Of a stretch of DNA of 64,000 bases, positions 52,435-63,879 are shown in pieces. The notes below the pieces were generated by a model that ran no database searches, had not been told where the DNA came from, and saw nothing but the letters and a program-made list of their open reading frames with translations. Made by a program: the position numbers and the translations under genes. How positions within the stretch are numbered: the first letter of the stretch is position 1; each line of letters begins with the position of its first letter. Origin of the DNA: Verrucomicrobiota bacterium (GTDB lineage Bacteria > Verrucomicrobiota > Verrucomicrobiia > Limisphaerales > CANJXF01); assembly GCA_038214755.1 (NCBI GenBank), contig JBBQRQ010000007.1, positions 1 through 64,000 on the forward strand, read 5' to 3'.

Positions 52435-53076
52435 ATGTTATCCGAAAAAGTCTACAAGAAAGTTAAGTCGATGATCTACGATGGACACTTGCAGCCAGGT
52501 GAGCGTCTGGTGGAGCGAGATCTTTCCCGGAAGCTAGGCACAAGCCGCATTCCCTTGCGTGAGTCTCTGGTTCGTCTTGAATCCGAAGGGTTAGTACGCA
52601 GCATCCCGAACAGCGCCTCTTACGTTGAGGATTTTTCCCCGTCAGACATTTTGGAAATGTATTCGATGCGACTCGTGCTGGAGCCCTTGGCGGCGCGACT
52701 GGCCACGCTGCAGCATGAGGATTCCTTGTTGGACAAACTGCGCAGGCTTTGCGAACTGATGACCACCTGCACAAGAAACTGTGATTGGACTGGACTTGAT
52801 CGCGCCGACTACCAGTTTCATCGCTTGATCGTCGGCGCATCAAGCCATAAACTTTTGATTCGTACCTATGACAACTGCCATATCCAAGTCACCGGCAGCC
52901 GCCCTTCATACGCTCACTTGAAGCTCCTTACCCCTGATACTACCGCTAAAGAACACGATGTCATCATGCAGGCTATTGGAAAATGGGATGCCCACGCTGC
53001 GGAGGAAGCTACCCGCGATCACGTAAGACTTGCTCTCGGTCAACTGGAGGAATACTTAGGAGTACGGCTGAAATAA
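52435..53076 (+). CDS. GntR family transcriptional regulator (FCD domain)
   Basis: LQPGERLVERDL...SRIPLRESL..LESEGLV; D.QFH, EH. Confidence 0.95.
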   Translation: MLSEKVYKKVKSMIYDGHLQPGERLVERDLSRKLGTSRIPLRESLVRLESEGLVRSIPNSASYVEDFSPSDILEMYSMRLVLEPLAARLATLQHEDSLLDKLRRLCELMTTCTRNCDWTGLDRADYQFHRLIVGASSHKLLIRTYDNCHIQVTGSRPSYAHLKLLTPDTTAKEHDVIMQAIGKWDAHAAEEATRDHVRLALGQLEEYLGVRLK

Positions 53077-53572
53077 AGGATCGGGGCATTAATGCCAATG
53101 CTACGGCACCAAACATATCCATCCGGGCATCCTCGCTCTTCCACGGAACACGTTTTGGTGGCAACCGGAATCCGAGTTCATCCGAAAATTTGTCGGCAAT
53201 GATTTGAGCGATCTGATGTTTGGTGCCGTGTCCATCAGGAACAAAGGTACGACTCACCTGCTCGCGCGGAAACAACAGGACAGTGACATTGCGTTTTTCC
53301 GCCCGGAAGATGATTCGCTTGGTGAGCATCCGAATCCTCGTTGAACGCCGGAACGGTTTAATGGAAGTATCTTCAAGAACCAGTACGTCAGGCTCATAAT
53401 GCTCGATCATCTCTCTTACCCTCGCAATTGATCCATTATTCTTGTCTCCATCAATTGCCTTCAGACCCCAATCGGCCAAGATGTTCTGTCCTTCAAGGAG
53501 CGCAAAACCGAGACCTCGAGTTGAGAGAGCTATTCCAAGGATACGAGGATATTTCGGGAGAGTCTTTGTCAT
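53009..53572 (-). CDS. RuvC-like/RNase H-fold protein, probably catalytically degenerate
   Basis: RILGIALSTRGLGFA, PDVLVLED, TKHQIA, MFGAVALA; 3' end overlaps gntR. Confidence 0.7.
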   Translation of the reverse strand: MTKTLPKYPRILGIALSTRGLGFALLEGQNILADWGLKAIDGDKNNGSIARVREMIEHYEPDVLVLEDTSIKPFRRSTRIRMLTKRIIFRAEKRNVTVLLFPREQVSRTFVPDGHGTKHQIAQIIADKFSDELGFRLPPKRVPWKSEDARMDMFGAVALALMPRSFISAVLLSIPPVDREQVLRDRG

Positions 53573-53583
53573 GATGTTCTGGG

Positions 53584-53916
53584 TTAAGAAGCCGCAAGGT
53601 CAGCGAATGCTTCGCGTTTACGAACGCTCTGGGAACTAGGTTTGCCGAAATCTTTTCTTTCCGATAAAATCTTGGCCCGCTCGGTTACTTCTCCTTCGAC
53701 TTTTTGATAGAGACCAGCAAAGAGTTCACTGGTTGATCTTTTGTAAACGACCTCGAACGCCAAGGCGGTTCTCAAACTTGGCTCACGAGCAAACCGTTCG
53801 TAACGGGAAATCTTGGCTCCGCTTCTAGTGCCCAACAGAAAAGCCACTTCATCTTGGGATAAAGCAAGGCGCTTTCGGTTTGCTTTGAGGTAATTGGGTA
53901 GTTGTGGCGAAGACAT
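53584..53916 (-). CDS. XRE-family HTH transcriptional regulator
   Basis: NYLKANRKRLALSQDEVAFLLG....ISRYER..REPSL. Confidence 0.9.
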   Translation of the reverse strand: MSSPQLPNYLKANRKRLALSQDEVAFLLGTRSGAKISRYERFAREPSLRTALAFEVVYKRSTSELFAGLYQKVEGEVTERAKILSERKDFGKPSSQSVRKREAFADLAAS

Positions 53917-54160
53917 GGAATTGATCAACTCTGAATGAGTTACAAGTTACAGTATCCGATCACTCGGATTACCTCACGGGGGCAACCTTTGCCGGAATCG
54001 GCAAGATTTTACAAAAACACCGAGCGTTTTTGCTCGGCGCTATCGGAAATATAAAAGCACATTTCTGGAGATTTGTACAGTATTCTTTGTGATTCAACTT
54101 GCCTAAACCTACAAGCTTCACCGTCTGCCTCGCCGTATAGAGATGGGTCAGACTTAAGTG

Positions 54161-54331
54161 ATGAAAATTGAGCAGACCCAGATCGATGAGTTGAATCGCA
54201 TTTGTATGGAGTCCTTTCAAAGAAATTTCTCCGAAACCGAATTACAGGAGATTGCCCAAAGGATCATTCGCTTTCTCAAGAATACCGAAGGCTTCCCCGC
54301 TCCACTTTCGCACGACGTTGACCCGGATTAA
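54161..54331 (+). CDS. Small helical protein upstream of the recombinase (below the ORF-track cutoff)
   Basis: ATG..TAA, 56 aa MKIEQTQIDELNRICMESFQRNFSETELQEIAQRIIRFLKNTEGFPAPLSHDVDPD. Confidence 0.6.
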   Translation: MKIEQTQIDELNRICMESFQRNFSETELQEIAQRIIRFLKNTEGFPAPLSHDVDPD

Positions 54332-54362: not shown

Positions 54363-56201
54363 ATGACCCCCTATGTAATTTACAGTCGAAAATCGCTGGA
54401 GGATGAAGACAGTCAAGTGCAATCAATTCCGTCCCAAGAGAAGGAAATGAAATCGATTGCGGCTAAATTCAATTTGACCCTCGTCGAACCTCTGCTGAGT
54501 GAAGCCAAATCCGCCAAAGCACCTGGCCGGCTTGTTTTCAACGAGATGATGGAGCGGGTTGATAAAGGTAAAATCAAAGGAATACTTTGCTGGAAACTTG
54601 ATCGGCTTGCCCGCAATCCCGTTGACGGCGGACGGATCATTTGGGCAATCAAGCAACATGGTTTAGTCATCAAGACCCCTCACCAAACTTTCTCCCAGGC
54701 GGAGGATAACTTGATTCTCATGTATATCGAGTTTGGGATGGCTCAAAAATATGTTGATGATCTCAGTAGAAATACCACAAGAGGTTTGAAGGCCAAAGCT
54801 GAAAAGGGCTGGTACCCCGGTGTAGCTCCAATGGGATATTTAAACTCCAAGATAGAAGAACGTGGCAGTAAAACCATCCTGAGTGACCCGGAACGATTTG
54901 CGGCTGTCCGGCGAATGTGGGATCACATGCTCACGGGCAATTTCAGCCCCGCACGCATCCAGAAGATGGCAAATGCGGAATGGGGATTTCGCACTCGCCA
55001 AACCAAACGAACGGGAGGTAAAGCCATTTCAAGAAGCACGGTCTACAAAATCTTTTCTGATCCCTTCTATTATGGTCGGTTTGAATATCCAAAAAGAAGC
55101 GGGCTATGGTATGAAGGCCAGCATGAACGGATGATTACGGAGGCAGAGTTCAACTGCGTCCAAAAGATACTTCACCGCGAGACTAATCCGCGGCCTCATA
55201 CGGAATTTGTTTTCCATTTCCGAGGATTGATTAGATGTGGAGAATGTAATTCAAGTATTACAGCCCATTGTAAGGAGCAAGTGCGTTGCACCGGGTGTCA
55301 TTACAAATCGTCGGTCAAGAACCGCGCTTCCTGTTTTAAGTGTGGTCTATCACTCAATGACATGAAAGCTCCGAAGCTCAGGCAATACGCGTATTACCAT
55401 TGCACGCGCAAGCTCAATAGAGCTTGTCGCCAACAATGTATTTCTGCCGATGCCCTCGACAAGCAACTAACGGAAAAGTTGAAGGCTTACCGTCTGCCAC
55501 CCGAGTTCCGGGATTGGGGCTTGAAATATATTGAAAAACTAAAGGATCAAGATCGTGCGGAGAGAAAGCAAATCTTTGAAGAACGCAGAAAGACGTACGA
55601 CCAATGTCTATCTCGCTTGGAGAATCTGGTTAAGCTCAAGACAGCCCCCGAGAATGCTGACGGCAGTCTTCTTTCCGATGAGGAGTATCAAAAACAGCGC
55701 TCCGATTTACTCAATCAGAAAGGCAGTCTAGCAATGGATACTTCCACCTTTGAGATCGAATTGGAGAGCAAGACGCGCGTGGCAAAGGAAGCCTTAAACA
55801 CGATGGGCCAAATAGCCGAACCGACCTTCGATGGGGATGTTTTGAGAAAAAGAGAGATTCTGGCTGCTCTGGGATTGAACCACGTCTTAAAGGAAAAGGA
55901 GCTAGAGATTAGGCCGGAATTTCCCTTCTCTGACTTTCCATATGATGGAAAGCAGGATCGATCTAGTATTGACCCGATTGAACCGGAAAATATGCAGGAG
56001 GGACCAGGCTTAAATGGGGATACTATCTCTCCTTGTCCGAGACTGGAGCGGGACGTGGACGAAGATCGAACCAACGCATTGAAATCGTGCCTTCAATCAA
56101 TCTGGAAAAAGATTGATCCATCATCGCCGATTTTCAATCGCTTTCCTTTTAAACTAGGGGCACCAATTGTCCCCGTTCGTCGCGGGAGACGGCTAATTTA
56201 G
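54363..56201 (+). CDS. Large serine recombinase (resolvase + recombinase + zinc ribbon + coiled coil)
   Basis: YSRKS (catalytic Ser), WKLDRLARN, G..P.GY, FYYG, H..MIT...F, LIRCGEC, YYHC. Confidence 0.96.
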   Translation: MTPYVIYSRKSLEDEDSQVQSIPSQEKEMKSIAAKFNLTLVEPLLSEAKSAKAPGRLVFNEMMERVDKGKIKGILCWKLDRLARNPVDGGRIIWAIKQHGLVIKTPHQTFSQAEDNLILMYIEFGMAQKYVDDLSRNTTRGLKAKAEKGWYPGVAPMGYLNSKIEERGSKTILSDPERFAAVRRMWDHMLTGNFSPARIQKMANAEWGFRTRQTKRTGGKAISRSTVYKIFSDPFYYGRFEYPKRSGLWYEGQHERMITEAEFNCVQKILHRETNPRPHTEFVFHFRGLIRCGECNSSITAHCKEQVRCTGCHYKSSVKNRASCFKCGLSLNDMKAPKLRQYAYYHCTRKLNRACRQQCISADALDKQLTEKLKAYRLPPEFRDWGLKYIEKLKDQDRAERKQIFEERRKTYDQCLSRLENLVKLKTAPENADGSLLSDEEYQKQRSDLLNQKGSLAMDTSTFEIELESKTRVAKEALNTMGQIAEPTFDGDVLRKREILAALGLNHVLKEKELEIRPEFPFSDFPYDGKQDRSSIDPIEPENMQEGPGLNGDTISPCPRLERDVDEDRTNALKSCLQSIWKKIDPSSPIFNRFPFKLGAPIVPVRRGRRLI

Positions 56202-56230
56202 TCATGAGACTCTTTACTACCCGATGACCT
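56044..56230 (+). repeat. att-like repeat copy 1 (inside and after the recombinase 3' end)
   Basis: TGGAGCGGGACGTGGACGAAGATCGAACC followed by about 160 bp homologous to copy 2. Confidence 0.85.
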
Positions 56231-56436
56231 GAACGGGAGGAGGAGAGACCTAGACTACCTGTAATATCTCGTATTGATGGAGAAATTCCTTCCCTTTCTG
56301 CCGTCTTTATAAAGTAGTTTCTTCTCAGTTATTGCTTTGAATTCCTGAACTGCCTCCGTGATGATCATTATAGTACGGTATCAAAACTGGAGTAGGAGTA
56401 CAAGATTGCCGGAGGCGGCAAGAAATCTACACTGCT

Positions 56437-56465
56437 TTGCATTTTGGGTTAAAGTTTTATAGAAT
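56437..56465 (+). promoter_or_regulatory. Putative sigma70 promoter of hicBA (leaderless)
   Basis: TTGCAT-17nt-TAGAAT, 6 nt before the ATG at 56472. Confidence 0.65.
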
Positions 56466-56471
56466 GAAACT

Positions 56472-56720
56472 ATGAACCAATACACCTACTCAGTCGAAAT
56501 AGAAGCAGCGGAAGAAGGAGGATATGTCGCCTCTGTCCCCGCATTGCCGGGCTGTCATACGCAAGGCGAATCATTGGATGAAACAGTTGCCAATATCAAA
56601 GAAGCAATTGAAGGATTCTTACTGTCACTCGTAAAACATGGCGAGCCGATTCCTGTTGAGCGTGAGTCGAGACATCCTCTGACTATAAGCATAGGGGTAC
56701 GATCTCCGCTTGCTGCATGA
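56472..56720 (+). CDS. hicB: HicB family antitoxin (short, no DNA-binding domain)
   Basis: EEGGYVASVPALPGCHTQGESLDE...NIKEAI...GEPIP. Confidence 0.93.
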   Translation: MNQYTYSVEIEAAEEGGYVASVPALPGCHTQGESLDETVANIKEAIEGFLLSLVKHGEPIPVERESRHPLTISIGVRSPLAA

Positions 56721-56944
56721 CGCGGTTACCTATTCTCAATTCTAAGAAAATAATTAAGGCTTTAAAACAAGCTGGTTTTGAAGAGGACATTCAACATGGC
56801 AGTCATTTGTATTTTTGGCATCCGATAAAGAAACTAAGGACGTGTGTGCCAATTCATGCCGGCAAAGATATTGGTCGTAGCTTACTGAGAAAGATTTTAA
56901 CCCAGGCTCGACTTTCAGAGGATGAATTCCGAAAATTACTCTAG
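56717..56944 (+). CDS. hicA: HicA family toxin
   Basis: IIKALKQAGF....GSH....H......VPIH.GKDI; ATGA overlap with hicB. Confidence 0.93.
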   Translation: MTRLPILNSKKIIKALKQAGFEEDIQHGSHLYFWHPIKKLRTCVPIHAGKDIGRSLLRKILTQARLSEDEFRKLL

Positions 56945-57151
56945 ACACGAAAGGTGGTATTTTATTGCCCCGAAGTCCAAACCCAGCAAAGTGTTCCGTT
57001 CTCCTCACTCGATTAGCTGTCGAACAACATCTCTTCCTTGACCGTTTCAAAGAGAGACTGGAGTTTAAGAGCAGCTGGAGTGTTTACCTTGTTTACCATA
57101 CAAAAGTGGGTATCTCTCCTTTTTGAGGTAAACAGTCGGCCTTAGACCAAA

Positions 57152-57179
57152 GAAAAACCCCTAAGCTGAGGGGTTTTTC
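57152..57179. terminator. Bidirectional intrinsic terminator
   Basis: GAAAAACCCCT-aagctg-AGGGGTTTTTC perfect 11-bp stem with A/T tracts on both sides. Confidence 0.8.
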
Positions 57180-57209
57180 ATGGGGGCTATTCTTGCCAAT
57201 TTGGCAACT

Positions 57210-58310
57210 TGGAGCGGGACATGGACGAAGATCGAACCGTATCATTGAAGCTTGCTTTAGAAGGAATTTGGAAAAAGATCGTTCCTTCATTGCCGATTCT
57301 TGATCGCTACCCTTTCGTGAATGAAAAGCCAGTAATTCATGCTCTCCATCGTGATGAGAAGGGTCGTTTTGTTTAAGAAACAGATCCAATCAAATAATCC
57401 TAGAAGCCATTTCATAAGTTAAAAATTGTAAGTGCTTTGTACTTGTACTTTTACGAAGGATTTGTGAAAAGCTGGGGATGCAAAAAGCATTCTTATCAGA
57501 TGAGCAATGGAAAAAAATTGAGCCGCATTTGCCGTGCGACAAAAGTCGCGGACGGCCTTGGGCGGACAACCGCCGTGTCTTCGAAGGGCTATGGTGGATG
57601 CTTAAGACCGGCGCACGCTGGTGCGATCTACCCAAAGAATATCCCAGCCCCAGCACCTGCTGGAGACGCTTGCGCCGCTGGGAAAAGCAAGGCGTCTGGC
57701 TCAAAATCTGGCGGCAGTTTTTATCGGAACTGGACCAGCGCGGCAAACTCGATTGGAGTGAAAGTTTTCTGGATGGCAGTTTTGCTCCGGCAAAAAAAGG
57801 GGCTTTGGCGTCGGCAAAACCAAGCGCGGCAAAGGCACGAAGTGGATGGTGGTGGTCGACGGCCAAGGTGTTCCTCTGGGAGTCCAACTGGTCAGCGCCA
57901 GCCCGGCGGAAGTGACGCTGGCGGAGAGCACGCTGCAAAAAATTTCGGTGCCGCAGCGGCGCGGACGCCCGCGCCAGCGGCCTTTGCGCGTGGTGGCCGA
58001 CCGCGCTTACGACAGCGATGCCTTGCGCTGGCGTTTGCTGCAACGCGGCATGGTTTTGATCTGTCCGCATCGCAAGAACCGCCGGAAACCCTCGCGCAAC
58101 GACGGACGAGAACTGCGCCGCTACCGCAAGCGTTGGAAAGTCGAACGCACCTTCGCCTGGCTGGGCAACTTCCGACGGTTGCTGGTTCGTCACGATCATC
58201 ATCTGAATATTTATGAAGCGTTTTTCCACCTCGCCTGCCTCATCATCACCCTCAGGCACTTATGAAATGGCTTCTAGTCATTCTCAGATGCTATTACTAC
58301 TCGGTTGACT
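57210..58310 (+). repeat. att-like repeat copy 2 (interrupted by the IS5-family element)
   Basis: TGGAGCGGGACATGGACGAAGATCGAACC (28/29 identical to copy 1); homology resumes after the IS (tagtcat...ttactac.cg). Confidence 0.85.
57403..58274 (+). mobile_element. IS5-family (IS427-like) element, apparently intact
   Basis: Perfect terminal IRs GAAGCCATTTCATAAG/CTTATGAAATGGCTTC in a CTAG target; orfA 57478 and orfB ending 58265 joined by the A7G4 slippery site at 57792; DRAYD, RWKVERTFAWL. Confidence 0.95.
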
Positions 58311-58351: not shown

Positions 58352-58600
58352 TTAGGAACTACCCCACTTGATCCAATCGCTCTGATGAATATTCGACTGT
58401 TGGATCATTGTCTTGAGTGTTGAGATGGGATAACTCCCATGAGTAATATTCACTTCGACCCGTCTATCTTTCTCCGCACCTTCTCCGTATTTTATCCAGG
58501 CCTCATGCGAGCCTTTTAATGGTTTTAAAAATCTGAATCCGTTCTTCTTCAAAAAGTGCGTAACATCTCGATATGTCCAGTTGCGTAATTTTCTTGTCAT
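58352..58600 (-). CDS. hicA: HicA-like toxin (no adjacent hicB seen)
   Basis: V..FLKKNGF.....KGSH...TLKTMI.QS. Confidence 0.8.
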   Translation of the reverse strand: MTRKLRNWTYRDVTHFLKKNGFRFLKPLKGSHEAWIKYGEGAEKDRRVEVNITHGSYPISTLKTMIQQSNIHQSDWIKWGSS

Positions 58601-59017: not shown

Positions 59018-59263
59018 TTACCCTTTCGACTCGCGAGGGTCTGCACTTCTAGGATAGGTACGCTCTTCTTGGAATCGAGCATTTTCCTTTTGGATTTTTA
59101 CTGAACCGCCTTCCTGGCCAAGAACTTTCTTAAGCACCCCGCCTTTGGTCGCGTCCTCTTTGGTCTCGAAGGTTTTAACGACCCGGTTGGTTTTATCATT
59201 TCCAAGGTCCCAACGGTCCTTTTTCTCGTTATATTCCAATGTGAATTTTCGTAAATTTGCCAT
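59018..59263 (-). CDS. DUF2188-like small protein
   Basis: W......R...F.TKEDA......GSVKIQ..N.RFQEERTYP...DP..SKG. Confidence 0.8.
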   Translation of the reverse strand: MANLRKFTLEYNEKKDRWDLGNDKTNRVVKTFETKEDATKGGVLKKVLGQEGGSVKIQKENARFQEERTYPRSADPRESKG

Positions 59264-59399
59264 ATTTTTTTAAGTTAGTTCTTCGGTGGTCGACCGAGCA
59301 CCGATATTGTTACAATGATATCAGTTATGGCAGGAATGTAAAGCTTGGTAGAATAGCGTTCTTGCCTTCCGTTCGATAACCCAGCATCTTGGCATGGTT

Positions 59400-59891
59400 G
59401 AGAACTGTCCTTTACAAGAGTTGTTCCATCAAGCCGGAAATCGCCCTAATCAATGGGTGAATCTCTCCCAAGAGGCATTTGAATTCGCCTCTACCGCGCG
59501 AGCTCGGTTTGCTAAAGGTGATCCAAAGACCAAAAAACGATTCTTTCCACTATCGCATCGAACTTAACCTAATCGACAAAAGCTTAGCATTGAAGCCAAG
59601 AAACCATTCTTTATCCTAGAAAATTCCGTGCGAGGTGAGGGATGTGAAAATCAAGAAATCGAACCTGAAATAATCCATGTGGAACGAGGACAGAAAGAGG
59701 CAAGGGCCTCTTCTGGTCCCGGATGGTGCGCCATCCGGGACGAAGATCGAACATTTCCATTAAAAAGCGGAGAGATAGTTAAGTCAATTTACCACTTCTT
59801 TCGAAGCGAATGTTCGTCGCCTAAATTTAAGTTGTCCGAATGGGCCGATTTAGGTCATGAAGAAAGCATGACAGAACAAGAAAAAATCTAA
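59400..59891 (+). pseudogene. C-terminal remnant of a second large serine recombinase carrying att-like copy 3
   Basis: LSQEAFEFASTARARFAKGD, (I)LSTIASNL, KLSIEAKKPF, IEPE-18aa-WCAIRDEDRT; frameshifts near 59540-59580. Confidence 0.75.
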
Positions 59892-59938: not shown

Positions 59939-60160
59939 TTACAGCAATTTTTGAAAGTCTTCCTCAGATACTTCTATTTGTTTCAAAATGAGTTTGAGCA
60001 ATGAACGTTTTGGATCCTTACCATGCTTTGGCACGCACGTTGTAACCCCTTTATAGGATGTTTCAAAATAAGGTGACTACCGCGTTGCCTATCCACCACA
60101 AAGCCGACTCGTTCGAGAGCTTGAATAATTTTACGTGCCGATAGAGTCGGCTGGCTGCCA
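59939..60160 (-). pseudogene. hicA: Frameshifted hicA paralog
   Basis: LSARKIIQALERVGF...QRGSHLILKHPIK / CVPKHGKD / RSLLKLILKQ...EEDFQKLL* split across frames. Confidence 0.8.
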
Positions 60161-60252
60161 ATTTCAAATATAAAAAATGACCGGTTGCGGACGGGATTTA
60201 GATAAAAGCTTGTTGCCAAGCGATCTTTTGGTTAAAAACTGCGGTCGACCCA

Positions 60253-63200
60253 ATGGCAGTGATTTGCCCAATCCTTTTCTGCATTTTTGGTGCGGCGCTC
60301 GGGGTGGCTCACGCGGAAGCCGCGTTGCGCCCGCCAGTGCATCCGCGCCGCAACGTGGAGGATTTTCCGGTGGTGCCGGCCAAGTACGTTCGCTTCACAA
60401 TTCTCAAGGCCACCAGTAGCGAGCCTTGCTTGGATGAACTAGAGATTTATCCCGAGGAGGACGCAACGCGCAACATTGCGCTGGCCAAGGGCGGCGCGCG
60501 GGCGACGGCTTCAGGCTCTTTGCCGGGTTTCCAGATTCACCAACTCGAATTCGTCAATGACGGAAGATATGGAAACGGCCATAGCTGGATCGCCGATAAA
60601 GCCAGTGCCTGGGTCCAAATCGAACTTCCGGAGGTGGCGCTTATCAACCGCGTGGTTTGGGGTCGTGACCGCGAGAACAATTTCGTCGACCGCTTGGCGG
60701 TGGAGTATGGCATTGAGGTATCTACCAACGGCAGCACTTGGTGCCCCGTCGCTTCCTCCGCTGACCGGTCGCCGTTGGTCATAGGCGGAACGTTCGCCGG
60801 AGTCCAACCCATGACACGGCAAATCGTGACTCGGTTCGCGCCTGTCAATAGCAGCTTCTCATTCGAATCGCAGAACAACTCCCCCGATTACAGAATCGAC
60901 CGCTGGCAGACCGAGGACGGCCTGCCGGGGAATACGGTGACTTCGATACTTCAGACGCGCGACGGGTATCTCTGGATTGGTACGTTTGGCGGGTTGGCGC
61001 GGTTTGACGGGGTGCGGTTCAAACGATTTGGCGAGGCGGAGGGACTGAAGAACAATCGCGTTCTCTGCCTGTGCGAAGATCGGCAGGGCAACCTCTGGGT
61101 GGGCAGCGAGGGCGGCGGGCTTTTTCAACTTCGTGACGGTGTGTTTACTGAACTGACGACCCGCGACGGTCTGCGGCACGATGTCGTCACGGCGTTGGCG
61201 GAGGGCCGGAGCGGCCGCCTTTGGATTGGAACCTACGCTGGCCTACAGTGCTGGCAGGAAGGACACTTTGTTATGGACCCAGCGGAACCGTTTCAGTCTT
61301 CCTTCCCGGTGACGCGGTTGCTCGTGGACCGCGCTGGCACGGTCTGGATGGTCGTTAACGGTCAGTTGCGCACGGTGGTGGCCGGGCACGTGGTCACTCC
61401 CAAACTGGGGGGTGAACCGAGCGGTCAACTGGCGATCTCCGCGCTGCACGAAGGCAAATCAGGGCAGCTCTGGCTCGGCGGCAACAGTGGATATGTGGCG
61501 TCGTCTAGCAACGGCGTCCTGAGGGTCTTACCACTGCCGCAGGAAATGCCGCCTGACAATATTTGGGAAGTGCTGGAGGCAGGGACTGGCGACATATGGA
61601 TGGGCACCGCCTCGAGTGGCTTGCGGCGCTGGCGCAACGACCGCGTTTTGGCGCTCACCACCCAAGAGGGGATGGCTGAGAATTCCGTACGTTGCCTCTT
61701 TGAAGATCGGGAAGGAAACCTTTGGGTGGGCACCAATGGCGGGGGACTACAGCGGCTCAAGCCGAAAACTCTTCGACTCGTGACCACTCGTGATGGGCTG
61801 GCCCACAACGTCGTGATGTCACTCGCCGAAGAGGGTAGTGGGGAGTTGTGGATTGGTTCTAATTGTGGGGGGCTGAGCGCGCGACGCAAAGGAGTATTCA
61901 CTCCCGCATACTTGAACTACCTGCTCGACAATGAATGCATTTGGTCGGTGCTAAGCGCTCGGGACGGTGCGCTGTGGGTGGGCACTTGGAACAACGGACT
62001 GTTTCGCAAAACTGGGGAAAAGCTGGAGCAGTTTAAATTGGCCAACTCCTACAGCGATGAACCAGTGCTGGCGTTATGCGAAGACCGCAACGAAGGAATG
62101 TGGGTGGGAACCTACCAGGACGGGCTGAAATTTTTTCGGGACGGCAAGTTTACCTCGTATCGCATAACAAATGGATTGTCGGCAAATTTCGTTACGGCGT
62201 TGGTGCAGGACGTGAAGAGTAGGCTTTGGATTGGGACGGCCGGGGGCGGACTAAATTGTTTCGCGGACGGCGTGTTCAAAGTCCTGAAGCGCCGAGACGG
62301 ATTGGGCAGCGATTTCATTCGCGCTCTCCACATTGACGCGAATGGAGTGCTCTGGATTGGCACAGGCGGAGGCGGAGTGAGCCGGCTAAAGGACGGGGAG
62401 TTAAAGACGATCAGCACCCGCCAAGGGCTGCTTGATGATGTTATCTCGCAAATTCTTGAGGACGACAATGGTCATTTTTGGTTCGGTTCGAATCGTGGCA
62501 TTTTCTACGTGTCCAAGGCGGAATTAGAGCGGGTAGCCGAGGGACGTGTAGGCTCACTTAATCCCATCACCTTTGGAAAAGCGGAGGGAATGGAGAATCT
62601 CGAATGCACCGGCGGCTTCTGCCCGGCGGGCCTGAAGACACGAGACGGCAGGTTATGGTTTTCGACAGTCAAGGGACTGGTGACCATTGACCCGAAAAAC
62701 ATTCGCAGCAACGATTTGCCTCCGCCGGTTGTCATCGAGCAGGTCATTGTTGACGGGGTTCCCGCAGAAGTTGATGTAAAGAGGCTCACTTCTCAGATCC
62801 GAAACTCGAAATTGGAGATTCGAAATCGTCGGGGCATGTATGCATCGAATAATACGACTTTGAGAATTCACCCCCGGGCAAAACGCGTCGAGTTGCATTA
62901 TACCGCGCTGAGTTTCACTTCACCGGAGAAGGTGCGGTTTCGCTACCGACTTGACGGTCTTGATTCGGACTGGGTAGAAGCCGACGGACGACGTATCGCG
63001 CAGTATCCATTTCTGCCGCCGGGACCGTACCGGTTCCGCGTTACCGCCTGCAACGAGGACGGCGTCTGGAGCCAGAGCGAGGCAGTGCTGGCGCTAACCT
63101 GCCTGCCGGCTCTCTGGCAGACTTGGTGGGTTCGGCTGCTGGGGGCCGCGCTAGTGTTGGGCGGAGCTGGTTGGACTGTGAAAGTGGGGGCAACGCACCG

Positions 63201-63879
63201 GCTGCAGCGTAGGCTCACGCTGCTCCAGCAGCAGCACGCGCTTGAGCAGGAACGGACGCGGATTGCCCGGGACATTCACGACGAGCTGGGTGCTTCGCTC
63301 ACGGAAATTTCTCTGTTGAGCGATCATTGCCGGAAACGCCTCGACCGGCCTGGAGAAGTGGCGGTCGATTTACAGAGGATTTCCACCACCGCGCGAGAAG
63401 CCGTGCAAACTGCGGATGGCATCGTTTGGGCGGTCAATCCCCGAAATGATTCGCTTGATCACCTAGCCAACTACCTCGTCCACTTTGCCGAGGACTTCTT
63501 CCGGCTGACAAACATTCGGTGTCGTTTGGATGTGCCAGCCGACTGGCCGCAAATTCCCCTACCTATGCAACATCGGCACCATTTGCTATTGGCGGTTAAG
63601 GAGGCTTGCAATAATGTCGCACGCCATTCTGAGGCGTCTGAAGTGTGGCTGCGCATGACGCTGACAGACCAGGAATTCAGCATCGAGGTTCGAGATAACG
63701 GTCAGGGGTTCCGACCTGAATCAAAACCGGAAGATAGTGACGGTTTAATCAATATGCGTGAGCGCATGGCAGATCTGGGTGGGCGATTGGAACTATCCAG
63801 CGAAGCAGGTCGGGGAACGTCGGTGAAGTTGATTGCGCCACTGAACCAACTCAACTCATTCACATGTCCATCCGTGTAA
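60253..63879 (+). CDS. Two-component sensor histidine kinase (discoidin-like N-terminus, beta-propeller repeats, Y_Y_Y, HisKA_3, HATPase)
   Basis: Repeated D..G.LWIGT..GL; FRYRL.G.D..W; ERTRIARDIHDELG; VRDNGQGF, GL.NMRER. Confidence 0.95.
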   Translation: MAVICPILFCIFGAALGVAHAEAALRPPVHPRRNVEDFPVVPAKYVRFTILKATSSEPCLDELEIYPEEDATRNIALAKGGARATASGSLPGFQIHQLEFVNDGRYGNGHSWIADKASAWVQIELPEVALINRVVWGRDRENNFVDRLAVEYGIEVSTNGSTWCPVASSADRSPLVIGGTFAGVQPMTRQIVTRFAPVNSSFSFESQNNSPDYRIDRWQTEDGLPGNTVTSILQTRDGYLWIGTFGGLARFDGVRFKRFGEAEGLKNNRVLCLCEDRQGNLWVGSEGGGLFQLRDGVFTELTTRDGLRHDVVTALAEGRSGRLWIGTYAGLQCWQEGHFVMDPAEPFQSSFPVTRLLVDRAGTVWMVVNGQLRTVVAGHVVTPKLGGEPSGQLAISALHEGKSGQLWLGGNSGYVASSSNGVLRVLPLPQEMPPDNIWEVLEAGTGDIWMGTASSGLRRWRNDRVLALTTQEGMAENSVRCLFEDREGNLWVGTNGGGLQRLKPKTLRLVTTRDGLAHNVVMSLAEEGSGELWIGSNCGGLSARRKGVFTPAYLNYLLDNECIWSVLSARDGALWVGTWNNGLFRKTGEKLEQFKLANSYSDEPVLALCEDRNEGMWVGTYQDGLKFFRDGKFTSYRITNGLSANFVTALVQDVKSRLWIGTAGGGLNCFADGVFKVLKRRDGLGSDFIRALHIDANGVLWIGTGGGGVSRLKDGELKTISTRQGLLDDVISQILEDDNGHFWFGSNRGIFYVSKAELERVAEGRVGSLNPITFGKAEGMENLECTGGFCPAGLKTRDGRLWFSTVKGLVTIDPKNIRSNDLPPPVVIEQVIVDGVPAEVDVKRLTSQIRNSKLEIRNRRGMYASNNTTLRIHPRAKRVELHYTALSFTSPEKVRFRYRLDGLDSDWVEADGRRIAQYPFLPPGPYRFRVTACNEDGVWSQSEAVLALTCLPALWQTWWVRLLGAALVLGGAGWTVKVGATHRLQRRLTLLQQQHALEQERTRIARDIHDELGASLTEISLLSDHCRKRLDRPGEVAVDLQRISTTAREAVQTADGIVWAVNPRNDSLDHLANYLVHFAEDFFRLTNIRCRLDVPADWPQIPLPMQHRHHLLLAVKEACNNVARHSEASEVWLRMTLTDQEFSIEVRDNGQGFRPESKPEDSDGLINMRERMADLGGRLELSSEAGRGTSVKLIAPLNQLNSFTCPSV

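Follow-up and report, generated by a model that had tools for sequence, protein, structure and literature searches.

Why should the gene for a site-specific recombinase be followed by repeats of its own end, and what would become of the enzyme if those repeats recombined? We asked this of a 64-kb stretch of DNA from a Verrucomicrobiota bacterium (hereafter the window; its contig spans 85 kb and the genome 5.1 Mb), in which the gene for a large serine recombinase (LSR), LSR1, contains near its 3′ end a short sequence that recurs twice downstream, each time followed by another open stretch resembling a recombinase C-terminus. A sequence-only reading of the window had proposed that recombination rewrites the enzyme's own C-terminus, possibly as a switch of direction or stability. 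Our comparisons established that the coding arm of the repeat copies the 3′ end of a transfer RNA (tRNA), that relatives carry a real antisense tRNA gene at this point, that the distal part beyond it (the tail) is exchangeable, and that tails are under purifying selection. We consider it likely that the three repeats are junctions made by an LSR that has its recombination site within the final ~55 codons of its own gene, the window being most likely a tandem accretion of units. The coordinates of all features are collected in Table 1.

Exactly three copies of the 15-mer GGACGAAGATCGAAC are present in the window, at 56057, 57223 and 59738 and all on the forward strand, against a chance expectation of 0.20; none of 100 shuffles reached this number. 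Site 1, inside the LSR1 open reading frame (ORF), and site 2, an orphan without an LSR gene attached, agree over TGGAGCGGGAC[G/A]TGGACGAAGATCGAACC; their homology begins exactly at TGG (56044 and 57210) and runs ~110 nt rightward, the left flanks being unrelated. The last 52 codons of LSR1 open with CTGGAGCGGGACGTGGACGAAGATCGAACC, a string that recurs at 57209 with another first base and a G-to-A change. This sharp start between unrelated left flanks, together with the 15-mer counts, confirms the repeats and tails as first read. Tails A and B indeed align without gaps, with 24 of their first 36 residues identical by hand count on the translations (58% over 43 aa, E ~1e-11, by tblastn); comparison of sites 1 and 2 bears out that the single core mismatch toggles GTG and ATG 6 nt after GGAG; and deletion of unit 1, which carries a toxin–antitoxin pair, would place tail B in the LSR frame by simple arithmetic (57209 − 56043 = 1166). 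The third tail is likewise present but not free-standing as had been supposed, since it is attached to a ~350-nt 3′ remnant of a second LSR gene (LSR2). This remnant, more distant from LSR1, matches by blastn the 3′ parts of the LSR genes in the related loci L004, L005, L008, L020 and L033, and has a body match by tblastn. Searching the 5.1-Mb genome with tblastn revealed no other copy of LSR1 or of the three tails below E 0.2.

LSR1 has the architecture of its family. An N-terminal catalytic Resolvase domain spans residues 5–149 (Pfam, 1.3e-18), in which S11, invariant in two LSR alignments (42 and 20 aligned homologs), is by its position the presumed nucleophile. A Recombinase domain follows (Pfam, 3.3e-09); the Pfam Zn_ribbon_recom match scores 21.7 bits, under the cut-off of 25.3, and seven cysteines (292, 295, 309, 324, 327, 347 and 355) are invariant in the homolog alignment. 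With the long helices at 380–427 and 439–482 of the AlphaFold2 model, a Recombinase domain and a zinc ribbon with an inserted coiled coil identify the protein as an LSR.

The proximal arm of site 1 (56044–56060, TGGAGCGGGACGTGGAC) is the reverse complement of a tRNA-Gly-like 3′ end: its other strand, GTCCACGTCCCGCTCCA, can be read as one strand of a T-stem and one of an acceptor stem, then a discriminator base and CCA, as in tRNA-Gly. The distal-arm motif follows at 56061–56072 (GAAGATCGAACC). The arm of site 3 ends in GCGCACCA, like the 3′ end of a different tRNA. ARAGORN and Rfam recognised no real tRNA or other known RNA at the sites or anywhere in the window, where the sites merely resemble tRNA-Gly or tRNA-Arg 3′ ends, and the tRNA-Gly genes of this genome lie intact at other places, where their flanks are unrelated.

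We then turned to a comparison set of 167 related loci (designated L with a number), for which DNA was taken around 80 loci from genomes, 80 from metagenomes and 1 true relative from viral contigs. An LSR 3′ body is present in 144 loci. It leads into a recognised tail in 83 of these, into an antisense tRNA gene (Gln, Asn, Ile, Ser, Trp or His) in 20 and into another tail in 30, and it runs off the contig in 11. In the tRNA-linked loci the tRNA 3′ end falls at the same coordinate at which orphan homology starts. Tail-linked and tRNA-linked genes have a common proximal arm and split right after ..GGAC, the tail version continuing as GGAC/GATGTTCGAAC.. and the tRNA version as GGAC/TCGAACC.., with 5 nt more before TCGAAC in the former. 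Measured on this distal arm alone, TCGAAC is shifted outward by 5 nt in tail-linked and orphan sites relative to the tRNA-linked sites. Attachment (att) sites of LSRs are short (40–50 bp), and in work on the LI integrase attP reportedly has its outer motif 5 bp more distant from the centre than attB does.

The two kinds of ending occur on closely similar enzymes: tRNA-fused and tail-fused LSRs are 77–82% identical in the pairs L007/L006, L141/L006, L045/L131 and L111/L131. Between loci, blastn homology extends from ~1.33 kb upstream of the LSR start up to the site and ends there, and the LSR ORF runs across the att site, the layout known from the recombinase DsiB. Two loci from different metagenome-assembled genomes (MAGs), 90% identical, differ by a 732-bp cassette at the site: L014 reads LSR–site–tail X–flank, and L003 reads LSR–site–tail 1–insert–site–tail X–flank. 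By eye, their similarity switches at least 7 nt left of the D codon. At the level of sequence comparison, these junctions show the repeat to be the crossover site of the enzyme, and the crossover falls within 56044–56060. Taken with the shuffled tail classes described below, the 77–82% identical enzymes ending in a tail or in a tRNA-antisense peptide and the L003/L014 cassette support the proposal that recombination at the site rewrites the C-terminus.

The closest relative adds a further arrangement. On its contig (L089; 75% identical), a truncated LSR is fused antisense to tRNA-Thr(CGT), and 25 nt beyond this tRNA stands an orphan site with a tRNA-Gly-like arm, TGGAGCGGGAACGG, followed by a complete tail of class C1. 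This orphan would stand where a displaced tRNA-Gly end is expected if a tRNA-Gly gene had preceded tRNA-Thr. Displaced tRNA fragments are seen beside this tRNA-Thr and in L036. At the latter locus the LSR is fused to tRNA-Asn, and the tRNA-Asn 3′ fragment GCTCCCCCGGTAGGATT is present 9.3 and 10.7 kb upstream of it in two direct copies (L036:985 and L036:2410), each followed by the same sequence; the tandem array here thus flanks the element on its opposite side. In this lineage of the Candidate Phyla Radiation the LSR ORF ends before the crossover. Separately, the genome that holds L001 has about ten low-scoring tRNA-like matches on one strand within 2.2 kb (G041:C2:1559018-1561230).

If the distal part is exchangeable, tails should not simply follow the enzymes that carry them. 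Of 7999 proteins scored in a search for relatives, 3520 had E ≤ 0.001, and the best 120 were aligned. The body up to ..RT measures 567–571 residues in 102 of these 120, and an arginine occupies the column of R569 in 109. Behind RT, the same 120 proteins fall into discrete tail classes: C1 (..LK.ALE.IWKKLDP..FKRYPF), to which tails A and B belong; C2 (..KAERAAALIYAHFKKEFG); C3 (..LVKSIYHFFQS.C.SPSF.LSDW), to which tail C belongs; and the Cys-rich C4. One helix pattern (..[IV][YW]..F/K..) is common to all four. On trees of the body built from 101 rows (19 of the 120, with no classed tail or of odd length, were left out, and one analysis also dropped the last 14 residues), C1 forms one clade and C2, C3 and C4 are intermixed. 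The trees imply 22 (FastTree) or 23 (IQ-TREE) changes of tail class against a mean of 49 when classes are shuffled, and at least 12 changes are forced by branches with Shimodaira–Hasegawa-like approximate likelihood ratio support of at least 95; a 48-row tree of hand-picked rows agrees. Since tail classes are shuffled against the recombinase tree, we conclude that tails have been swapped between recombinases.

Several observations on these loci stand apart from the tail itself. Many contigs stop 0–500 nt after the LSR site (L005, L011, L025, L026, L029, L030, L036, L061 and L073), as is to be expected if assemblies break at a repeated site or tail. A phage origin of the family was considered and set aside, with true relatives at only one of eight viral-contig loci. 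A conserved non-coding element of ~330 nt (L006:14620-14960, with equivalents in L003, L009, L013, L014, L015, L016 and L031) combines long arms complementary to each other (CCCCAACGTGTCGTCGGCT ... AGCCGACGACACGTTGGGG) with the hairpin CTACATACATGGTATGTAGG. It is found 0.3–9.5 kb downstream of the LSR and in every case precedes a 455-aa ATPase resembling TrwB and type IV coupling proteins; it matched no Rfam family in the subset of loci searched, and may be a transfer origin.

Arrays like that of the window recur. Of 56 tail-linked loci with at least 1.5 kb of downstream sequence, 16 carry one or two further tails 0.25–8.5 kb away, all on the LSR strand and none inverted. Three-tail arrays occur in the window, L090 (LSR 72% identical), L140 and L160. 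Upstream orphan tails accompany L007, which is tRNA-linked, and L163, and were found by motif in L067, L078 and L036. The set of orphan tails comprised 21 (L011 had been mis-flagged and was removed), one of which runs off its contig. All 20 evaluable tails are open to the class-typical stop, that of L007 departing from the class after 24 residues; random length-matched frames in the same loci are open in 30% of cases.

The sequence-only reading had named the ratio of non-synonymous to synonymous change (dN/dS) across homologs among its checks, with neutral evolution of tails as part of the outcome that would overturn it. We computed this ratio by the Nei–Gojobori method, with the five site codons left out, for 18 pairs that each included an orphan tail. 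It ranged from 0.06 to 0.51 in the 14 pairs with a positive ratio (0.24 for tail B against tail A); of the remaining four, one had no non-synonymous change, one was identical and two were saturated at synonymous sites. Pooled over pairs, pN was 0.13 and pS 0.44. Because orphans are uniformly open and their ratios low, the tails are not neutral but selected.

Some orphan sites also carry a structured module on their left, exemplified by site 2: a GTAAACA box (57128–57134), a terminator hairpin (57158–57178) and the palindrome TTGCCAATTTGGCAA (57193–57207). The same order and spacing recur in 8 of 26 orphan sites, at six loci and across tail classes, and in none of 83 LSR-linked sites. The hairpin stems vary and stay complementary (CCCCT/AGGGG, CCGCT/AGCGG and CCCTC/GAGGG). 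We read the module-bearing orphans as LSR-less cassettes that carry a complete site; read on the tRNA strand, such a cassette site would supply a tRNA 3′ end and a terminator. Cargo varies, with HicAB in the window and an NYN-domain protein in L033.

How might these parts have come together? In the accretion that we favour, each unit recombining at the site would bring its own distal arm and so complete the recombinase ORF upstream. It would follow that LSR1 now wears the tail of the HicAB cassette, that the cassette's own site module now carries tail B, and that truncated LSR2 carries tail C. The pile-up would read, from the left: LSR unit; site with tail A and the HicAB cassette; site with tail B and a decayed element holding an insertion sequence (IS) and truncated LSR2; site with tail C and a HicA-like fragment. 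Tail swapping would in this respect parallel the way in which tRNA-targeting islands carry a spare tRNA 3′ end. We infer the order of events and the source of selection, which would act on each tail while it is fused to a working recombinase, part of the time.

Several observations weigh against this account. None of 16 arrays ends in a tRNA within the DNA examined, and neither the 64-kb window nor its 85-kb contig contains a tRNA or transfer-messenger RNA (tmRNA) gene in which the island could be seated. All array junctions look attP-type on both arms, and canonical LSRs are not known to recombine attP-type sites with each other. To the left of LSR1, where the LSR unit abuts a GntR gene, there is neither a displaced tail nor a tRNA fragment, and the outer ends of the island (~53.08 and 60.22 kb) do not resemble the sites. 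Purifying selection on the tails cannot be assigned to their time as orphans, and misassembly at the repeats is possible, most loci being MAG or metagenome contigs. Two variants of the history were dropped. An element consisting of the 3-kb unit alone, with tails that are part of its target, does not fit the tRNA-linked loci L111, L117, L141 and L007, which have no tRNA fragment at the left end of the unit. That cassettes enter a regenerated tRNA at the far end of the array does not fit either, with no array ending in a tRNA and none after the LSR of L001 on its presumed contig.

Does the tail also regulate the enzyme? In the AlphaFold2 model of LSR1 (42 sequences, mean predicted local distance difference test (pLDDT) 72.6), residues 522–567 are disordered, a single tail helix follows at 567–583 (pLDDT ~60–70; block values 72 and 63), and disorder resumes behind it. 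A helix predicted on a ~45-residue disordered linker has the shape of a tethered docking peptide, and its presence, absence or class might set direction, choice of partner or stability. Purifying selection on the tail fits this idea, as does the finding that integration into a tRNA removes the tail and yet leaves tail-less genes intact over their last 540 codons; tail loss on tRNA integration is a real change of state in these relatives. Precedents are on record: in phage Mx8, integration gives int a new 3′ end and alters site use, as summarised in PMC6070905, and McMurdie et al. (2011, PMC3146451) raise the same idea for dsiB in the part of their paper that we draw on. Against it, all four classes have a common helix pattern and tails A and B are of the same class, so that replacement in kind, which fits better than alternative states, explains the data without a switch. 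We hold a regulatory role possible but doubtful. Each recombination event would then reset the enzyme, and such a role would add to the accretion rather than compete with it. A bolder version, which we think unlikely, would have an LSR with a tail (whether on the circle or joined to the tail of a neighbour) and an LSR ending in a tRNA-antisense peptide work in opposite directions, giving a built-in memory of the integration state that needs no separate directionality factor, with cassettes that bring a compatible tail as a serine-recombinase counterpart of integrons.

An integron-like platform might also be envisaged: a resident LSR, serving its host, at whose in-gene site small LSR-less cassettes with toxin–antitoxin, defence or regulatory genes would dock and be reshuffled. 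Arrays of two or three tails right behind the recombinase in a single orientation, a shared structured end module with differing cargo and the presence or absence of the cassette in L003 and L014 all suit such a platform. We nevertheless regard it as quite unlikely: LSR1 itself sits in a low-GC island and was not found in 20 relatives, close relatives are plainly lodged in tRNA genes like ordinary islands, remnants of a second LSR inside arrays (the window and L089) point to whole elements piling up, and the enzyme is not of the integron's tyrosine type.

The extra sites and tails could instead be useless scars of past insertions, still open because they are young. Unit 2 is decayed, with its IS insertion and truncated LSR2, and some tail pairs are nearly identical (L128 and L103). 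Two orphan sites (L090:16017 and L140:9563) have the same TCGAAC-to-TCCAAC change, which turns arginine into proline (DEVPT and DDVPT) and may have disabled them. Youth does not explain, however, why saturated or high-dS pairs (0.4–1.9) keep dN/dS at 0.06–0.28, down to 0.06 for the orphan–orphan pair L160/L140, why every evaluable orphan is open against the 30% of random frames, or why stem changes in the conserved left module are compensatory; we judge this reading distinctly improbable. Least probable of all is that orphan tails are translated alone, as suggested at the outset, giving small proteins that might for instance be trans-acting recombinase cofactors: site 2 does offer GGAG, 6 nt and ATG, and an in-frame NTG lies within 10 codons upstream in 20 of 26 orphans, but an in-frame ATG occurs in only 3 of 26 and a motif like that of Shine–Dalgarno in 2 of 26, the TTG/GTG often seen at codon −5 simply opens the tRNA mimic and is present inside LSR genes too, and a terminator stands ~35–50 nt upstream with no promoter-like spacing by eye.

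The array lies in an acquired island of ~7 kb, as both its composition and its distribution indicate. Between 53.0 and 60.2 kb the GC content is 0.43–0.48, apart from 0.55 in the IS, and the flanks have 0.50–0.60; at the right edge, near 59983..60219, it climbs from 0.43–0.47 to 0.55–0.60. A search of 20 relatives, eight from the same genus, found LSR1 in none. The island is made up of the LSR unit, a HicAB cassette that has a site module but no LSR, a second element in decay and an IS. To its left lie genes for a GntR regulator, a GH115-like protein and a GDSL lipase, and to its right a Y_Y_Y sensor kinase. At the island ends (52960–53140 and 60140–60300) we found no repeat or site-like sequence beyond 7–9-nt matches, and cross-locus alignments gave no conserved flank at the left end of the LSR unit. 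The flanking histidine kinase did not lead to an empty site: its family has many paralogs, and none of the 40 relatives searched holds a clear ortholog. Assembled contigs of the sole sequencing run with this DNA, probably its source, contain the joined form only and no excision joint, which is uninformative because contigs drop rare variants.

Table 1. Features of the recombinase island, in window coordinates, with the evidence for each
Feature	Position	Strand	Evidence or remark
187-aa ORF, conserved LSR companion, left end of conserved LSR unit	53009..53572	-	tblastn
XRE-type helix-turn-helix regulator of LSR unit	53584..53928	-	Pfam HTH_31/HTH_3, below or at curated cut-offs
57-aa ORF directly upstream of LSR1	54158..54331	+	ORF list; no Pfam match
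LSR1, intact, 612 aa, now with tail A	54363..56201	+	ORF list, Pfam, AlphaFold2 model
Tail A, 52 aa (L561–I612), class C1 (..ALK..L..IWKKIDP..)	56043..56201	+	ORF list, alignment
Site 1, 29 nt, inside LSR1 ORF	56044..56072	+	Sequence comparison
HicB antitoxin, unit 1 cargo	56472..56720	+	Pfam HicB_lk_antitox, 1.8e-11, 44.7 bits
HicA toxin, unit 1 cargo	56717..56944	+	Pfam HicA_toxin, 4.6e-18, 65.5 bits
Left module of LSR-less cassette site	57128..57209	+	GTAAACA box, hairpin, palindrome, then tRNA mimic
Tail B, orphan but complete 55-aa ORF, class C1	57209..57376	+	ORF list, tblastn
Site 2, orphan, single mismatch against site 1	57210..57238	+	Sequence comparison
IS4/IS5-type insertion sequence just behind tail B	57400..58277	+	DUF4096 and DDE_Tnp_1 in two overlapping frames
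HicA-like ORF (weak), unit 2 cargo	58352..58600	-	Pfam HicA_toxin, 4e-05, 24.1 bits, cut-off 27
DUF2188 ORF, unit 2 cargo	59018..59263	-	Pfam, 1.6e-07
3′ remnant of LSR2, C2/C3/C4 clade, two frames	59394..59738	+	blastn, tblastn
Site 3, partial copy	59724..59752	+	Left arm TGGTGCGCCATCCGGGAC, distal motif GAAGATCGAAC unchanged
Tail C, class C3 (..VKSIYHFFRSECSSPKFKLSEW..)	59739..59891	+	ORF list, alignment
HicA-like fragment, last ORF before host histidine kinase gene (60253–63879)	59983..60219	-	Pfam HicA_toxin, 2.3e-09, profile positions 1–31 only

Within the LSR unit, the 187-aa ORF adjoins the LSR in 68 loci (tblastn) and could be an accessory or directionality factor. It has no Pfam match and no sequence match in PDB; its last ~25 codons overlap the 3′ end of the GntR gene, and its N-terminus (ILGIALSTRGLGFALLE) is, by eye, reminiscent of RuvC-like nucleases. 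The XRE regulator is syntenic in L004, L006, L008, L012, L015 and L020, and small ORFs that resemble the 57-aa ORF by eye adjoin the LSR in L003, L004, L007 and L008. Inside the window's 57-aa ORF, just upstream of the LSR1 start, the 9-mer CCCGCTCCA (54296–54304) repeats the opening 9 nt of the site as their inverted complement, probably by chance. In the cargo, the hicB and hicA ORFs overlap by 4 nt and both exceed their Pfam cut-offs, as a HicAB toxin–antitoxin pair should. The IS has perfect 20-nt inverted repeats (57400–57419/58258–58277). Contig depth in the source-sample run is 28–39 over the IS (57478–58179) and 20 elsewhere, and several short contigs break there, so that the IS is multi-copy in the source community. 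A palindromic repeat, CGCGGACGAAGAACGTCCGCGCTCC, scattered over contigs of genome G000 (e.g. C8:76972, C10:28171 and C13:69939) and often in facing pairs, looks like a repetitive extragenic palindrome and unrelated to the recombinase sites.

For the window's genome alone, these results describe an ordinary, partly decayed mobile island; the wider interest lies in the family. LSRs are widely used in genome engineering, and their one-way behaviour is normally ascribed to a separate directionality factor. Here a large natural LSR family, mostly from environmental MAGs, carries the site within the recombinase gene itself. Each recombination event therefore alters the last helix of the enzyme, a helix that selection maintains, and the family offers a direct and cheap test of the role of the C-terminus in direction or stability. 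It also shows serine recombinases targeting tRNA genes, which the portion of the 2015 Islander report that we cite describes as not known for serine integrases (PMC4383910). The family further shows recombinase-less cassettes with a conserved site module that carry toxin–antitoxin and other small cargo.

Several known systems have some of these properties. Integrons rely on the tyrosine recombinase IntI, folded single-stranded attC sites and a docking site outside the gene. A one-orientation cassette array beside a recombinase gene and structured cassette ends are common to both, but with a serine enzyme and a site inside its ORF the present family is no integron, and the resemblance is functional only. 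In ICESt1/CIME accretion, recombinase-less att-flanked elements stand beside an enzyme-supplying integrative and conjugative element; there the recombinases are of the tyrosine type and the att sites encode no part of an enzyme. Composite islands of the staphylococcal cassette chromosome mec (SCCmec) use Ccr serine recombinases and place elements with and without a recombinase in tandem, each restoring the 3′ end of the target gene. Serine recombinases and tandem pile-up are thus shared, whereas what SCCmec restores is rlmH/orfX, not the recombinase's own gene or a tRNA.

The nearest parallels are two. In Dehalococcoides, islands at the tmRNA gene ssrA carry a CcrB-like serine recombinase, DsiB, and insert in the T-loop; the 3′ end of dsiB overlaps att, and the stop codon of the gene falls beyond the island (McMurdie et al. 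2011, PMC3146451). As described in the portions of that paper used here, these islands stand in tandem between direct repeats, 15 of them without an integration module; cis-mobilizable elements and accretion are discussed, and a comparison with SCCmec is drawn (PMC3146451). Its authors suggest that dsiB is perhaps complete only on the circle or behind a neighbouring island, and judge the overlapping part divergent and probably non-functional (PMC3146451). Likened by description, the two systems have in common a serine recombinase gene across att, a tRNA-like gene end as target, tandem islands and integrase-less members. They differ in that the target there is tmRNA, and here tRNA genes in relatives, with no tRNA gene in the window; DsiB C-termini are described as divergent, whereas the present tails fall into conserved classes under purifying selection; and unlike the DsiB module, the LSR unit shows no second Resolvase match (Pfam) that would indicate a small DsiA- or CcrA-like recombinase. 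The other parallel is Mx8, in which attP lies inside the integrase gene and integration gives a new 3′ end and an enzyme of altered behaviour (IntP/IntX; PMC6070905 and PMC4383910, citing Tojo 1996 and Magrini 1999). As summarised in these sources, it shares with LSR1 an attP in the integrase coding sequence and is a tested precedent for a C-terminal swap; unlike the present family, it is a phage with a tyrosine recombinase and a single swap, with no arrays of alternative tails.

Our literature search, outside which most subscription journals lay, found no account of conserved, class-shuffled serine-recombinase tails or of the cassette module apart from the dsiB discussion. The layout of a recombinase gene crossing its own site is already in print for a related kind of element, Dehalococcoides DsiB and Mx8 being closest. 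What is new here is a tRNA-mimicking, in-gene site in a serine recombinase family, exchangeable tails that are conserved and selected, and cassettes that bring such a tail without bringing a recombinase.

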